Below, piece by piece: positions 4,678 to 42,754 of a DNA stretch of 46,496 nt. Every line of letters starts with the position of its first letter. The stretch's first letter is position 1. The position numbers and the translations under genes are program-made. Under the pieces are notes generated by a model that did not search any database, was not told where the DNA came from, and worked only from the letters and a program-made list of their open reading frames with translations. This stretch comes from a virus (Duplodnaviria > Heunggongvirae > Uroviricota > Caudoviricetes): the IMG/VR virus record IMGVR_UViG_2630968543_000003; one strand, 5' to 3'.

Positions 4678-5505
4678 TTACTTAACCTGAATAAATGGTG
4701 TGTTGGCACCGCTGGTCATGTATTGCGGCAGTGTACCGTTCCACTTGTTGATGGCTTCCAGCTCCATAACACCGGGGTTCTGGCGCAGAGCTTCACCGCG
4801 TAAACGAATAGCATCGGCTTCGGCCTGGGCTTTTGTGCGAATCGCATCTGCCTGTCCGGCAGCTTCCGCGCGCAACATGTTGGCTTCCGCTTCGCGCTGT
4901 TTTACTTCCTGCTCGCGTTGCAGGGTTTTCTGGTTCGCCGTGACTTTGGCATTAATGCTGTCGATAACAGTAGGCGGGTACTCCGGCTTACCCACATATG
5001 AGAGGCTCATTACCTGAATACCGATGGGCGTCATTTCTTCCTGAATGTCTTTAAGAGCTGCATCCAGCAGCTCAGACTTGCCGCCGTCGATAAATTTGTC
5101 GGTGGTCATTTTGCTGGCCAGTCGGTTGAGTGCGTCGGCTATCTTCTGGCGCAGGTCGGTGTCGGTAATGTCGTCCACGCCTTTGCGGTAGGTCTGAAAG
5201 ACTGTGGTAACTTTGGATGGATCAACTTTGTAGGCCACGCCGATGTGATAGCCGATGGTTGTACCGTCACTCATCTGGAAACTGAATGGATCATCGTAGG
5301 TCTTCATCTGCTTAAAGGTCGGGAAGATGTAAACCTCAGTGTTCCATCCCGTCCAGTAGCGCCCAACACCGACCACTTCACCGACGCCTTTATCGTCGCC
5401 CAGTTTGTTTACTTTGATGCCCACATTACCAGGCTCAACGCGATCGCAACCGACAAGGCCAATGGTCGGCAGAACAAGGGCTAAAGCAAAAAGTAATTTT
5501 TTCAT
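4678..5505 (-). CDS. SPFH/band-7 (prohibitin-like) domain lipoprotein
   Basis: 275 aa; signal peptide with lipobox LVGC; SPFH-like core followed by an Ala/Glu/Arg-rich coiled-coil tail; AAGGA RBS; ATG at 5505. Confidence 0.75.
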   Translation of the reverse strand: MKKLLFALALVLPTIGLVGCDRVEPGNVGIKVNKLGDDKGVGEVVGVGRYWTGWNTEVYIFPTFKQMKTYDDPFSFQMSDGTTIGYHIGVAYKVDPSKVTTVFQTYRKGVDDITDTDLRQKIADALNRLASKMTTDKFIDGGKSELLDAALKDIQEEMTPIGIQVMSLSYVGKPEYPPTVIDSINAKVTANQKTLQREQEVKQREAEANMLRAEAAGQADAIRTKAQAEADAIRLRGEALRQNPGVMELEAINKWNGTLPQYMTSGANTPFIQVK

Positions 5506-37396: not shown

Positions 37397-38140
37397 ATGA
37401 CACAGACTGAATCAGCGATTCTGGCGCATGCCCGGCGGTGTGCGCCTGCGGAGTCGTGCGGCTTCGTGATAAGCACGCCGGAGGGGGAGTGGTATATCCC
37501 TTGTGTGAATATTTCTGCAGAGCCGGAGGCGTATTTTCGTATCGCACCGGAAGACTGGCTGCGGGCAGAGATGCAGGGGGAGATTGTGGCACTGGTCCAC
37601 AGTCATCCCGGTGGGCTGCCCTGGCTGAGCGAGGCTGACCGGCGGCTGCAGATAAAAAGCGCACTGCCCTGGTGGCTGGTCTGCCGGGGTGACATTCACA
37701 AATTCCGCTGTGTGCCACATCTGACAGGACGGCGCTTTGAGCACGGGGTGACGGACTGTTACACGCTGTTCCGGGATGCTTATCATCTGGCGGGGACTGA
37801 GATGCCGGATTTTCATCGCGAGGATGACTGGTGGCGCAACGGTCAGAACCTTTACCTGGACAATATGGCGGTCACCGGCTTTTACCGGGTGCCCCTGTCC
37901 TCTGCACAGGCGGGCGATATTCTGCTGTGCTGCTTTGGTGCTTCGGTACCGAACCATGCCGCCATTTACTGCGGCAACGGTGAGCTGCTTCACCATCTGC
38001 CTGAACAACTGAGTAAACGGGAGAGGTATTCCGAAAAATGGCAACGACGAACGCATTCAGTCTGGCGTCACCGCCACTGGCACGCATCTGCCTTCACGGG
38101 GATTTACAACGATTTGGCCGCCGCCTCAGCCTGTATGTGA
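37397..38140 (+). CDS. K: tail tip assembly protein (gpK-like)
   Basis: 247 aa from the ATG at 37397 (MTQTESAIL...); HSHPGG metal-binding motif (JAB/MPN-like) and a Cys/His segment consistent with an NlpC/P60-type region. Confidence 0.85.
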   Translation: MTQTESAILAHARRCAPAESCGFVISTPEGEWYIPCVNISAEPEAYFRIAPEDWLRAEMQGEIVALVHSHPGGLPWLSEADRRLQIKSALPWWLVCRGDIHKFRCVPHLTGRRFEHGVTDCYTLFRDAYHLAGTEMPDFHREDDWWRNGQNLYLDNMAVTGFYRVPLSSAQAGDILLCCFGASVPNHAAIYCGNGELLHHLPEQLSKRERYSEKWQRRTHSVWRHRHWHASAFTGIYNDLAAASACM

Positions 38141-38718
38141 ACACGGCAGCGGAAGCCATTCGCGCCCTGTCGATGCAGATGCCGGGCTTTCGCCGTCAGA
38201 TGAACGAAGGCTGGTACCAGATACGTATTGCCGGTTATGACACGGCACCGGAGGCGGTGTACGCCCGTCTTCACGAACAGCTGGGTGAGGGAACGGTCAT
38301 CCACATTGTGCCGCGACTGGCCGGGGCCGGAAAGGGTGGACTGCAGATTGTGCTGGGGGCGGCAGCCATCGTGGGCTCTTTCTTCACTGCCGGGGCATCA
38401 ATGGCGTTATGGGGTTCAGCCCTGGCAGCCGGTGGTTTTTCTGCCACCACGATGCTGTTTTCACTTGGAGCCAGCATGATTCTGGGCGGTGTGGCACAGA
38501 TGCTGGCCCCGAAGGCAAAAACACCGGATTACCGCGTAACGGATAACGGCAGACAGAACACGTACTTTTCCTCGCTGGATAACATGATTGCCCAGGGGAA
38601 CCCGATGCCGGTGCCTTACGGGGAAATGCTGGTTGGCTCCCGCCGTATATCCCAGGACATCAGCACCCGTGATGAAGGCGGGGGCGGAAAGGTCGTGGTT
38701 ATCGGGCGGCAGGGGTAA
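38038..38718 (+). CDS. I: tail tip assembly protein (gpI-like)
   Basis: 226 aa; overlaps the K end as in lambda; Gly/Ala-rich hydrophobic central region. Confidence 0.85.
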   Translation: MATTNAFSLASPPLARICLHGDLQRFGRRLSLYVNTAAEAIRALSMQMPGFRRQMNEGWYQIRIAGYDTAPEAVYARLHEQLGEGTVIHIVPRLAGAGKGGLQIVLGAAAIVGSFFTAGASMALWGSALAAGGFSATTMLFSLGASMILGGVAQMLAPKAKTPDYRVTDNGRQNTYFSSLDNMIAQGNPMPVPYGEMLVGSRRISQDISTRDEGGGGKVVVIGRQG

Positions 38719-38721
38719 AAA

Positions 38722-38822
38722 GAATAAAAAAATCCCGCAGTGATCGCGGACAGGAACTGCGGGAGAGTTACGAAGATTAAGTGTAAGGAATTATTCTTAT
38801 ATCACGACAAAAAAATTAACGC
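38722..38822 (-). ncRNA. candidate small RNA (about 100 nt) encoded antisense to the tail operon in the I-J gap
   Basis: Minus-strand -35 TTCACA (38851-38856) and -10 TATAAT (38829-38834) with 16-bp spacing; no ORF; ends at stem CCCGCAG/CTGCGGG (38734-38763) followed by a U-rich tail. Confidence 0.4.
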
Positions 38823-38828
38823 AGAGAA

Positions 38829-38856
38829 ATTATACGCGCCACAGTCAGTTTGTGAA
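38829..38856 (-). promoter_or_regulatory. near-consensus sigma70 promoter for the candidate sRNA
   Basis: -35 TTCACA (5 of 6 to TTGACA), 16-bp spacer, -10 TATAAT (6 of 6). Confidence 0.45.
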
Positions 38857-38931
38857 AATGTGAAGATATTCAGAATTTTTATGCCATTACCGGTTTTAAC
38901 CAACAGGATTATCGGTGGGCATGAAAGAAAA

Positions 38932-38964
38932 CCCCGGTATCTGCTGATACCGGGGTTTCTCTTT
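38932..38964. terminator. bidirectional intrinsic terminator in the I-J gap
   Basis: Perfect 10-bp stem CCCCGGTATC/GATACCGGGG with 4-nt loop, A-rich upstream and TTTCTCTTT downstream. Confidence 0.5.
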
Positions 38965-39061
38965 AGCATGGCAGAAATGTGTTTCATGCTTTTCGGGCGA
39001 AGGATATCCGACTTCTGTACGGAATGGCAAGTGGCGGTTAATTTATTCAGGGGAAGGCTGT

Positions 39062-42000
39062 ATGGGAAAAGGTGGCGGTAAGGCACACACGCCTCGCGAG
39101 GCGAAGGATAATCTCAAATCCACGCAGATGATGAGTGTGATTGATGCGATTGGTGAGGGACCGATAGAAGGTCCGGTGAAGGGACTGCAGAGTATTCTGG
39201 TGAACAAAACCCCGCTGACGGACACGGACGGTAATCCCGTGATACACGGTGTGACTGCGGTCTGGCGTGCCGGGGAGCAGGAGCAGACACCACCGGAAGG
39301 CTTTGAGTCCTCCGGAGCTGAAACCGGACTGGGCGTGGAAGTGACGAAGGCAAAGCCGGTGACGCGCACCATTACGTCCGCGAACATTGACCGCCTGCGG
39401 GTTACCTTCGGAGTGCAGTCACTGGTGCAGACCACGTCAAAGGGCGACCGTAATCCTTCCTCTGTCCGGATTCTGATTCAGTTACAGCGTAATGGCCGCT
39501 GGGTGACGGAAAAGGACGTCACCATTAACGGCAAGACCACCTCACAGTTCCTGGCCTCGGTGATTCTGGATAATCTGCCTCCCCGGCCCTTTAACATCCG
39601 GATGGTCAGGGAGACGGCGGACAGCACCACGGACCAGCTGCAGAATAAGACGCTGTGGTCGTCATACACTGAAATCATCGATGTGAAACAGTGCTACCCG
39701 AACACGGCCATTGTGGGGCTGCAGGTGGATGCGGAGCAGTTCGGCGGCCAGCAGATGACGGTGAACTACCATATCCGCGGTCGCATCATCCAGGTGCCGT
39801 CAAACTATGACCCGGTAAAACGCACGTACAGTGGTATCTGGGACGGCAGTCTGAAACCGGCATACAGCAACAACCCGGCCTGGTGCCTGTGGGACATGCT
39901 GACTCACCCGCGCTACGGCATGGGAAAACGTCTGGGGGCGGCGGATGTGGACAAGTGGGCGCTGTATGCCATCGGGCAGTACTGCGACCAGACGGTCCCG
40001 GATGGTTTCGGGGGGACCGAGCCGCGGATGACCTTTAATGCGTACCTGGCACAACAGCGTAAGGCGTGGGACGTTCTCAGTGATTTCTGCTCTGCGATGC
40101 GCTGTATGCCGGTATGGAACGGTCAGACGCTGACGTTCGTTCAGGACCGCCCGTCGGATGTGGTGTGGCCGTACACCAACAGCGATGTGGTGGTGGATGA
40201 TAACGGCGTGGGATTCCGCTACAGCTTCAGTGCCCTGAAGGACCGGCACACGGCGGTGGAGGTGAATTACACCGACCCGCAGAACGGCTGGCAGACCTCC
40301 ACGGAACTGGTGGAAGACCCGGAAGCCATACTGCGCTACGGACGCAACCTGCTGAAGATGGACGCGTTCGGCTGTACCAGCCGCGGTCAGGCCCACCGTG
40401 CCGGACTGTGGGTGATAAAGACCGAACTGCTGGAAACGCAGACGGTGGATTTCACGCTCGGGTCTCAGGGGCTGCGGCACACACCCGGTGACATTATTGA
40501 AATCTGTGATAATGACTATGCCGGGACCCTGACCGGCGGACGTGTCCTGTCCATTGATGCTGCCACCCGCACCCTGACGCTGGACCGTGAGGTTACCCTG
40601 CCGGAGACAGGTACATCGGCGGTGAACCTGATTAACGGCAGCGGTAAGCCGGTGAGTGTGGACATCACCGCACACCCCGCGCCGGACCGGATACAGGTCA
40701 GTACCCTGCCTGATGGTGTGGAGACATACGGGGTGTGGGGACTCTCCCTGCCGTCACTGCGTCGTCGCCTGTTCCGCTGTGTCTCCATCCGGGAAAACAC
40801 GGACGGCACGTTCGCCATCACGGCGGTGCAGCACGTACCGGAAAAAGAAGCCATTGTGGATAACGGGGCCAGCTTTGAGCCGCAGTCAGGCAGCCTGAAC
40901 AGCGTTATCCCACCGGCAGTGCAGCACCTGACGGTGGAGGTGAGTGCAGCTGACGGTCAGTATCTGGCACAGGCGAAATGGGACACGCCGCGGGTGGTGA
41001 AGGGTGTGCGCTTCAGTCTGCGTCTGACCAGCGGAAGCGGAGAAGACAGCCGTCTGGTGAGCACCGCCATCACCGCAGACACGGAGCACCGTTTCAGTGG
41101 TCTGCCGCTGGGGGAATACACCCTGACGGTGCGGGCCATTAACAGCTACGGCCAGCAGGGCGAACCTGCGACCACCACCTTCCGGATTAACGCGCCTGCA
41201 AAACCCGCCACCATTGAGCTGACGCCGGGGTATTTTCAGATAACGGCGGTCCCGCGTCTTGCGGTGTATGACCCGACGGTACAGTTTGAATTCTGGTTCT
41301 CAGAAAAACGCATCACGAACACGGCACAGGTGGAAAAATCTGCCCGTTATCTGGGGACCGGCAGTCAGTGGACTGTCCAGGGGAGCCGGATTAAGCCGGG
41401 GACGGATTTCTGGTTTTACGTGCGAAGCGTCAACCTGGTGGGAAAATCTGCTTTTGTGGAAGCCAGCGGGCAGCCCAGCAATGATGGTGAAGGGTATCTG
41501 GAATTTTTCCGGGGGCTGATAGATGAGACGCTTCTGGGCCAGGCACTGAAAGAGCGCATTGATGCTTCAGCGCTGCGTACGGAGGTCACGCAACTGGAAG
41601 AAGACATCCGTCAGCGGATGGACACGGATATCGCAGAAGTGACCCGGAAAATCGGGAAGGCGGAAAACAGCCTCACGCAGCTGGTTGCGAAAAAGAATGA
41701 GGACCAGACACTGGCCATCGCGCAGGTGAGCCAGAAAGTGGACCGGGTGAGCAGTGAAATCTCACAGACTGTCAGCCAGGGGCAGTCAGAAAACGCCCGA
41801 CAGATAGCACAGGTCCGCCAGTACGTGGATAAAAAAGGGAGTGAAATTACCTCGACCACGGATAAAAAGCTGGGTGACCAGGCCGTGACCATACAGCAAA
41901 TCCAGCGGGTTCAGTCAGACACGCGCAATGAGCTGAATGCCATGTATATGCTGAAGGTGCAGAAAACAAAAAACGGTATTCCCTATGTGGCCGGGATTGG

Positions 42001-42754
42001 CGCGGGGATTGAGGATGTTGATGGTCAGACCCTGAGTAACATTCTGCTGCAGGCCGATCGCATTGCGATGATTACCCCGGAGAACGGCAACACCACGCCG
42101 CTGTTTGTGGCGCAGGGGAATCAGCTGTTCATGAACGACGTGTTCCTGAAGCGACTGTTTGCGGTGAGCATCACGTCATCCGGCAATCCTCCGACGTTTT
42201 CCCTGACGCCGGATGGCAGGCTGACAGCCCGCAATGCGGATATCAGTGGAGCCATCACGGCGAATACCGGCACGCTCAATAATGTCACCATTAACGAGAA
42301 CTGTGTCATCAGAGGGAAACTGTCTGCAAACCAGATTGAAGGCGATCTCGTTAAAACAGTGGGTAAGGCTTTCCCCCGTGACTCCCGTGCACCGGAGCGT
42401 TGGCCATCAGGAACCATTACCGTCAGGGTTTATGACGATCAGCCGTTTAACCGGCAGATTGTTATTCCGGCGGTGGCTTTCAGCGGTGCCAGACATGAGC
42501 GGGAGAACAGCGATACTTATTCGTCATGCCGCCTGATAGTACGGAAAAACGGTGCTGAAATTTATAACCGTACCGCGCTGGATAATACGCTGATTTACAG
42601 TGGTGTTATTGATATGCCTGCTGGTCGCGGCGACATGACGCTGGAGTTTTCTGTATCAGCATGGTGGGTAAATGGCTGGTATCCCACAGCAAGTATCAGC
42701 GATTTGCTGGTTGTTGTGATGAAGAAAGCCACTGCAGGCATCACGATTAGCTGA
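39062..42754 (+). CDS. J: host specificity / central tail fiber protein (gpJ-like)
   Basis: 1230 aa; position after I; family assigned from size and context. Confidence 0.9.

Follow-up and report, generated by a model that had tools for sequence, protein, structure and literature searches.

A predicted small RNA gene in the I-J tail gene spacer of a lambdoid prophage is, by sequence comparison, a divergent allele of the PasB/EcOnc22-24 family

The DNA analysed here is a stretch of 46,496 nucleotides (IMG/VR virus record IMGVR_UViG_2630968543_000003; Caudoviricetes), hereafter called the window, and is a lambdoid prophage. Our subject is the spacer between its tail genes I and J, and a predicted small RNA (sRNA) gene that lies in this spacer on the minus strand, antisense to the late operon. 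The spacer comprises positions 38719-39061 and has a G/C content of 0.35-0.46, compared to 0.54-0.65 in the flanking genes. The low-G/C insert that a preliminary description of this DNA had reported is thus present, with a length of 343 bp instead of 344 bp; the same description was mistaken, however, in stating that lambda has no spacer between I and J, as the lambda gap measures 60 bp and contains a terminator-like hairpin of its own. The spacer is 100% identical in CFT073, ATCC 25922, S88 and CE10, and the RefSeq annotation places nothing within it, i.e. the sRNA allele of the window is unannotated. The genes and features of the locus are as follows (all positions are those of the window):

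38038-38718, plus strand: tail assembly gene I, taken from the list of open reading frames (ORFs), with a Pfam Lambda_tail_I match (E 5.6e-17) and annotated as 'tail assembly protein' by RefSeq in CFT073
38726-38822, minus strand: predicted sRNA of 97 nt, from +1 at G38822 (7 nt past the -10 element) to the end of the U7 tract, based on covariance model, folding and alignments
38726-38732, minus strand: U7 tract, separated from the terminator stem by one A; its end matches the annotated 3' end of the sRNA PasB (see below), which lies at the end of the T7 run
38734-38763, minus strand: intrinsic terminator hairpin with the outer stem CCCGCAG (38763-38757)/CUGCGGG (38740-38734) and a 16-nt loop, from sequence and folding
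38773-38789, minus strand: candidate seed, consisting of UCCUUA (RNA nt 34-39) and AAUCUU (RNA nt 45-50), interspersed with and followed by variable bases, from conservation and unpaired probabilities
38790-38798, minus strand: (ARN)3 motif AAGAAUAAU (RNA nt 25-33), a likely Hfq distal-face site, kept across alleles
38829-38856, minus strand: sigma-70 promoter with -35 TTCACA (38856-38851), a 16-bp spacer and -10 TATAAT (38834-38829), scoring 11/12 in a consensus scan
38857-38874, no strand assigned: CRP-like site AATGTGA-N6-TCAGA adjoining the -35 element, centred at about -44.5; a pattern match, to be taken as a lead only
38920-38970, no strand assigned: palindromic hairpin with a perfect 13-bp stem (38929-38941/38946-38958) that can be extended to about 22 bp, from folding of both strands
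39062-42754, plus strand: tail tip/host specificity gene J, from the ORF list, with six GpJ Pfam domains above the curated cut-offs

The true start of gene I may be internal to the ORF given above; its stop codon (38716-38718) is 8 nt away from the predicted 3' end of the sRNA. The promoter at 38856..38829 is the only sigma-70 site of the window, both strands considered, that scores 11/12 or more, the mean for shuffled sequences being 0.62. When promoter-terminator units are defined as a promoter with a hairpin plus U-run 40-250 nt downstream, the sRNA locus is the sole unit of the window, and any such unit was present in only 1 of 60 dinucleotide-preserving shuffles. The predicted RNA is devoid of AUG and has no ORF exceeding 2 codons; for its terminator, an alternative inner stem (UCCGCG/UGCGGG) is available over 38750-38734. 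These results bear out the near-consensus minus-strand promoter of the preliminary description (11/12 and unique in the window) as well as its ORF-free stretch of about 100 nt with an intrinsic terminator, which we find to be about 97 nt followed by the hairpin and U7. As for the CRP-like pattern, it has 1 match in the window versus 0.03 expected, for a pattern that was chosen post hoc; its spacing relative to the promoter (about -44.5) is non-canonical, and its half-sites are retained in Sakai prophage Sp15.

Two sRNAs detected in other prophages share this slot and orientation. The first, PasB of enteropathogenic Escherichia coli (EPEC) E2348/69, is an 83-nt RNA encoded by prophage PP6 (NC_011601 1466343..1466261, minus strand; PMC8550237 table S6). 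In the RefSeq annotation of E2348/69 it lies between a tail assembly protein (ending at 1466255) and gpJ (starting at 1466496), antisense to both and, as in the window, with its terminator adjoining the I stop codon. Its Northern band fits 83 nt, its stability is Hfq-dependent and its level is higher in the non-activating than in the activating condition (PMC8550237). The Northern probe used for PasB (AATCCCGCAGTGATCGCGGAGCT) matches window positions 38732-38751 at 20 of its 23 positions. In pairwise comparison PasB and the window allele are nearly identical in the promoter (-35, spacer and -10) and in the last 25 nt, the latter (terminator 3' arm plus U7) without any difference, and the U-run, the ARN block and the UCCUU/AUCUU motifs follow each other in the same order. 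The two differ in the RNA body, which is 72-74% identical, in the J-proximal half of the spacer, which is unrelated, and in the central 26 nt, which in the window no longer fit the EPEC partners of PasB (see below).

The second is EcOnc22 of Sakai prophage Sp15, found as an Hfq cluster by UV cross-linking with cDNA analysis (CRAC), with about 85 nt on a Northern blot and marked 'Destabilised' (PMC4104026 supplement; PMC7873438); EcOnc23 and EcOnc24 are its homologues in Sp14 and Sp11 (PMC4104026 supplement). The reverse complement of the probe shared by EcOnc22-24 finds an exact 23-nt match in the Sp15 I-J spacer (GTTAATCTTCATCGTTCTCTCCC); the match lies antisense to I and J. We note that the Sakai coordinates in the 2014 table (PMC4104026) are off by up to 128 bp relative to NC_002695.2. 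Like the predicted RNA of the window, EcOnc22-24 are encoded antisense in a lambdoid I-J spacer; in enterohaemorrhagic E. coli O157:H7 they are Hfq-bound and about 85 nt long. They have in common with the window RNA GUUAAUCUUC, the CCCGCAG...CUGCGGG-A-U7 terminator and an upstream AAATGTGA..TCAGA element. The O157 copies are about 75-80% identical to the window unit; in Sp15 the -35-to--10 interval, the 5' region and the terminator loop differ. The layout of the slot is equal in Sp15 and in the window, where I ends at 38718, the RNA at 38726 and J starts at 39062, and the window unit also has the sigma-70 promoter and U-tract terminator of its own that are expected of a family member.

To place the window allele, a covariance model (R1) was built from 10 aligned alleles other than that of the window (PasB, PasB-2, EcOnc22 and 7 others from IMG/VR). 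In the window this model has a single match, 38822..38726 on the minus strand, with 57.2 bits and an E-value of 5.2e-13, covering positions 1-94 of 94. Of the comparisons suggested in the preliminary description, that with Rfam 15, which lacks a model of this family, returned no family for the locus, be it in a gathering search of the window or in a search of 38600-39200 at E<=10 (chance-level hairpin matches only), whereas that with described sRNAs was successful through the homology to PasB and EcOnc22. An identity with AgvB or AsxR was rejected on account of location, length and the missing Rfam match in 38600-39200 at E<=10.

A census of PasB from 2026 relied on blastn with the 83-nt E2348/69 PasB, a word size of 28 and a query coverage of >75%, and describes PasB variants that differ by 'a few nucleotides' (bioRxiv 10.64898/2026.05.13.724894). 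The window allele gives no match at word size 28; at word size 11 only the terminator (25 nt) is matched, with a coverage of 43%. As it is missed by the census criteria, we file the window allele as a divergent allele of a wider family and not as PasB proper. An equation of EcOnc22-24 with PasB is absent from the literature examined: table S6 has an empty note field for PasB, and the names EcOnc22-24 do not occur in the 2026 preprint. Our sequence comparisons indicate that EcOnc22-24 and PasB are one sRNA family in the same slot, and that the window locus is a divergent allele, with a diverged central region, of this prophage sRNA family described in 2014 and 2021. The question of whether the locus is one of the prophage sRNAs already described, which the preliminary description had left undecided, is thereby answered in favor of the PasB/EcOnc22-24 family and not of the AgvB/AsxR kind of anti-sRNA. 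Its reading of the locus as a self-contained moron sRNA, expressed in the lysogen and antisense to the late operon, likewise gains support from the homology to two detected sRNAs in the same slot and orientation.

A search of IMG/VR for a 23-nt promoter-region word yielded 120 loci with 39 distinct complete units. The window allele is the commonest of these 39, followed by the PasB-2 type; many alleles are mosaics of types, and mosaic intermediates connect the allele types with each other. The promoter is near-invariant across alleles, although the loci were gathered by a promoter-region word; Sp15, which was found independently, keeps TTCACA and AATAAT. Also conserved are GCGUUA plus the U-run at the 5' end, the U7 tract, and the UCCUUA and (A/G)AUCUU motifs, which are mostly unpaired by prediction. 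At least three consecutive ARN triplets are found at the equivalent position in 38 of the 39 distinct alleles, in spite of differing sequences (AAGAAUAAU, AGUAACAAAAACAAC, AAAAAUAAC), compared to a mean of about 1.4 triplets in shuffles. The terminator stem is retained in all 20 aligned alleles, with a loop that varies from 4 to 16 nt through indels, and the linker regions differ by indels that are not divisible by 3. Conserved motifs and a conserved stem combined with non-triplet indels are the pattern of a structured, Hfq-binding non-coding RNA and not that of a coding sequence.

The unit is widespread: a distant blastn search with the window unit finds it in 1847 of 5426 complete E. coli genomes, at 4724 places (up to 9 per genome), and 633 complete E. 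coli records contain it at >=99% identity. A megablast search with the 83-nt PasB finds 999 places in 956 of the 5426 genomes. When the exact promoter 23-mer is searched for in the GTDB species representatives, the element proves restricted to Escherichia: the word is present in E. albertii only, apart from two probable contaminant contigs. The latter are a contig of a Collinsella metagenome-assembled genome and a 546-bp Asaia platycodi contig; since the sequence is Escherichia-phage in nature, both matches look like contamination or mis-binning. Internal J-like sequence directly follows the sRNA promoter region in two further IMG/VR loci, where the terminator is absent or the spacer truncated; this suggests deletions in decaying prophages.

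Taken together, we regard it as likely that the locus is an autonomously transcribed sRNA gene of the PasB/EcOnc22-24 family, a moron between I and J whose product is Hfq-dependent and acts in trans in the lysogen. From the sigma-70 promoter (38856-38829, minus strand), the host RNA polymerase would in the lysogen produce a transcript of about 83-97 nt that is antisense to the late operon, then silent, and ends with the CCCGCAG/CUGCGGG hairpin and U7; if the annotation of PasB with 83 nt is taken as a guide, the mature 5' end could be near 38808. Hfq would hold the RNA with the U7 tail and the 5' U-run on its proximal face and the (ARN)3 block on its distal face, and the central single-stranded region (UCCUUA...AAUCUU) would pair in trans with mRNAs. 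Class II Hfq-dependent sRNAs (ChiX, MgrR) have a 3' U-tail plus an internal (ARN)n block, suggesting binding to the proximal plus the distal face of Hfq. The window RNA is like them in this combination but has no sequence relationship to them, and its use of the Hfq faces is predicted from these motifs. Transcript size, Hfq dependence and the many trans partners are known from relatives, while expression and Hfq binding of the window allele, and the position of its seed, are inferred.

The position of the seed was approached through the known partners of PasB. [quoted passage not shown] The central 26 nt were compared with fragments of six of these partners (bfpB, bfpI, ftsZ, galE, ler and perB), using 100 shuffled seeds as controls. 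The PasB centre pairs with the partners better than 99 of the 100 shuffled seeds, with a sum of -108.6 versus -85.9 +/- 7.4 kcal/mol; in the strongest duplexes, those of ler, bfpB and perB, pairing involves UCCUUCAC, and in that of ler GAUCUUC as well. That the PasB centre fits its partners in this way speaks for a seed in the central single-stranded region. The window centre, tested against the same six fragments, is no better than shuffles (-76.3 versus -77.7 +/- 7.1 kcal/mol), and the ler site alone is partly retained in its central segment. From this lack of fit we infer that the target set of the window allele differs from that of PasB; three of the tested partner genes (ler, bfp, per) are EPEC-specific. 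Unconstrained RNAduplex runs of whole sRNAs against the RIL-seq fragments gave long spurious duplexes (z from about -1.7 to +1.9).

The failure of the window centre in this seed test is one of several points that weigh against a trans-acting sRNA gene at this locus. The whole predicted RNA folds at -19.4 kcal/mol with a modest z-score of -2.1, and its body, as mentioned above, is just 72-74% identical to PasB. The measured sizes of the relatives (83-85 nt) are smaller than the 91-98 nt predicted from their promoters, so that there is either processing at the 5' end or an error in the placement of the start sites. For the window allele, no expression, Hfq-binding or target data were found in the literature on uropathogenic and extraintestinal pathogenic E. 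coli (ExPEC), including a study of Hfq co-immunoprecipitation in UTI89, and the function of PasB itself is given as 'not elucidated' (bioRxiv 10.64898/2026.05.13.724894).

How else could the locus be explained? That the RNA, or convergent transcription, acts mainly in cis on the tail operon appears quite unlikely to us. It could do so by pairing at the I-J junction of the late mRNA of its own phage or of a superinfecting relative, resulting in cleavage or lower J expression, or by transcriptional interference. Late transcripts contain, in their I-J intercistronic part, a perfect complement of the RNA, the near-consensus promoter of the RNA points at the late operon, and the position of the unit is constant in all members examined, with the terminator 5-8 nt from the I stop codon; furthermore, the alleles hardly differ in their promoter-proximal and terminator segments, which would permit cross-pairing with related phages. 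However, descent alone can account for the constant position, and it is in lysogens, whose late operon is silent, that the relatives were detected. PasB, moreover, forms Hfq-dependent chimeras with many unlinked mRNAs, which its centre fits, and the PasB rows examined in the RIL-seq table, all from the activating condition, include no chimera with a tail-gene mRNA.

Even less probable, i.e. very unlikely, is that the RNA serves mainly as a sponge in the manner of AgvB and AsxR, by titrating a core-genome sRNA or competing for Hfq. Prophage anti-sRNAs with conserved 3' and variable 5' parts do exist: AgvB and AsxR (RF02702/RF02703), like the PasB/EcOnc22-24 family with its conserved terminator and variable body, are prophage-encoded, Hfq-binding lysogen RNAs in which a conserved 3' hairpin is combined with a variable targeting part. 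The ARN block of the window RNA, as in AgvB, suggests binding to the Hfq distal face, and the PasB chimeras with the pasA intergenic RNA would also agree with a sponge. On the other hand, AgvB and AsxR are 51-60 nt long and located downstream of PR' in a convergent pair, while the window RNA has a predicted 83-97 nt and belongs to the tail operon, about 22 kb downstream; no Rfam match to either was seen at the locus with E-values up to 10, complementarity to the seed of a specific core sRNA was not identified, and the partners of PasB in the rows examined are almost all coding sequences. One anti-sRNA of this kind is found elsewhere in the window, at 15641-16232, which is a classic PR' moron site without a toxin gene and is made up of the following features:

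15641-15889: three tRNAs
15968-16176, plus strand: STnc100/PasD-like sRNA (131.7 bits)
16180-16232, minus strand: AsxR-family anti-sRNA, convergent with the STnc100/PasD-like sRNA (Rfam 63 bits, exactly at the gathering score)

The AsxR-family anti-sRNA of this site has its own variable 5' end (UUCGAUUAUAAAAAUGUAUAUCUCAUGCUG...).

There is practically no chance that the spacer lacks an RNA gene and is either coding (a small sense ORF overlapping the J start) or late-operon punctuation with a vestigial promoter-like site: although mechanical ORFs of 113 aa (plus strand) and 94 aa (minus strand) cross it and the phages ASU11 and vB_EcoS-569R3 annotate a sense ORF of 66-77 aa at about 38850-39080, neither Pfam nor PHROG has a family for the ORFs of 113, 94 and 66 aa, RefSeq annotates nothing in the spacer, indels of 1 nt and 47 nt in near-identical copies (L031, L051, L111) break the frames, the J-proximal half is swapped for an unrelated 106-nt sequence in E2348/69 and Sp15, and homologous units yield RNAs detected on Northern blots. 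The annotations of the sense ORF (window 38881-39081, plus strand; L125 579-779; L126 548-781) read 'hypothetical protein' or 'tail fiber protein'. As it has no Pfam or PHROG family and near-identical copies carry frame-breaking indels, this ORF of 66-77 aa was probably called in error.

The J-proximal half of the spacer contains the second hairpin of the locus (38920-38970), which folds at -28.5 and -28.0 kcal/mol on the two strands (z about -8 each). Stem and loop at 38929-38958 are followed by U-rich tails in both directions (sense UUUCUCUUU, antisense UUUUCUUUC), which is the structure of a bidirectional intrinsic terminator. This hairpin is restricted to the long I-J spacer, the two being present in the same 1445 genomes; a dispersed repeat or miniature inverted-repeat transposable element was rejected for this reason. 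The J-proximal half occurs in two unrelated forms, the long form of the window (about 180 nt) and the short form of E2348/69 and Sp15 (106 nt). The short form has a hairpin of its own, CAGGCAYCC-loop-GGRUGCCUG, with a compensatory change from T:A to C:G between loci and a U-run on the sense strand only. Lambda (NC_001416 15445-15504) also has a GC-rich hairpin with a T-run after it, a short distance ahead of the ribosome-binding site of J; its sequence is unrelated to that of 38929-38958, its 60-bp spacer is without a promoter or sRNA unit, and an antisense U-run is present in the window only. A GC-rich hairpin plus a sense-strand T-run just before J is likewise seen in non-homologous I-J spacers (L001 1900-1960, L122 1230-1275, L124 746-805), lambda's included. 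In the IMG/VR locus L111 the window hairpin is missing (47 bp, 38932-38978), whereas the sRNA promoter region is kept; the deletion lies exactly between the imperfect direct repeats GCATGAAAGAAA and GCATGGCAGAAA, and the gap is either a slippage deletion or the trace of a hairpin insertion.

Since lambda has a pre-J hairpin without an sRNA, the short form has its U-run on the sense strand only and L111 keeps the promoter region, the hairpin at 38920-38970 is probably an ordinary pre-J intercistronic hairpin or terminator of the tail operon and not part of the sRNA gene. The preliminary description had seen here a perfect 10-bp bidirectional terminator (38932-38964) that insulates the sRNA unit. 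The hairpin is real and even stronger than proposed (13 bp, 38929-38958); lambda and the short spacers speak indirectly against its role as an insulator, and a dedicated insulation in the antisense direction by the long-form hairpin, while possible, is not supported. A weak promoter-like minus-strand site (TTGCCA-18-TATCCT, 39030..39001, 9/12) lies upstream of the hairpin (38958..38929) and of UUUUCUUUC, making up a possible second minus-strand unit. The candidate RNA within 38920-39030 would have about 70 nt and two hairpins in the modelled fold, with -31.9 kcal/mol and a z-score of -6.9.

Returning to the sRNA gene of the PasB/EcOnc22-24 family, its alleles allow a further-reaching reading, which we consider rather unlikely: the I-J sRNA gene might be a recombining 'seed cassette', in which promoter, Hfq handles and terminator are fixed and the centre is swapped, so that each allele, the ExPEC-associated one of the window among them, would rewire different transcripts of the host or of rival prophages. 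Within such a scheme, the RNA could for instance interfere as an antisense RNA with tail-operon mRNA from competing lambdoid phages. If it were true, the published census would have captured only about one half of the genomes that carry the gene and about one fifth of its copies.

A reader of the raw sequence had thus picked out a genuine class of prophage sRNA gene that has experimental support. The new information is modest, namely the equivalence of the names EcOnc22-24 and PasB, the conserved ARN block, and an unannotated divergent allele that is fixed in ExPEC strains (CFT073, ATCC 25922, S88). The family is wider than the BLAST-based census, about twofold by genomes (1847 versus 956) and nearly fivefold by copies (4724 versus 999). 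Given its diverged central region, the regulon of the window allele is probably different from that of PasB, and, if expressed, this allele would be a candidate for a prophage-borne regulator in extraintestinal E. coli.

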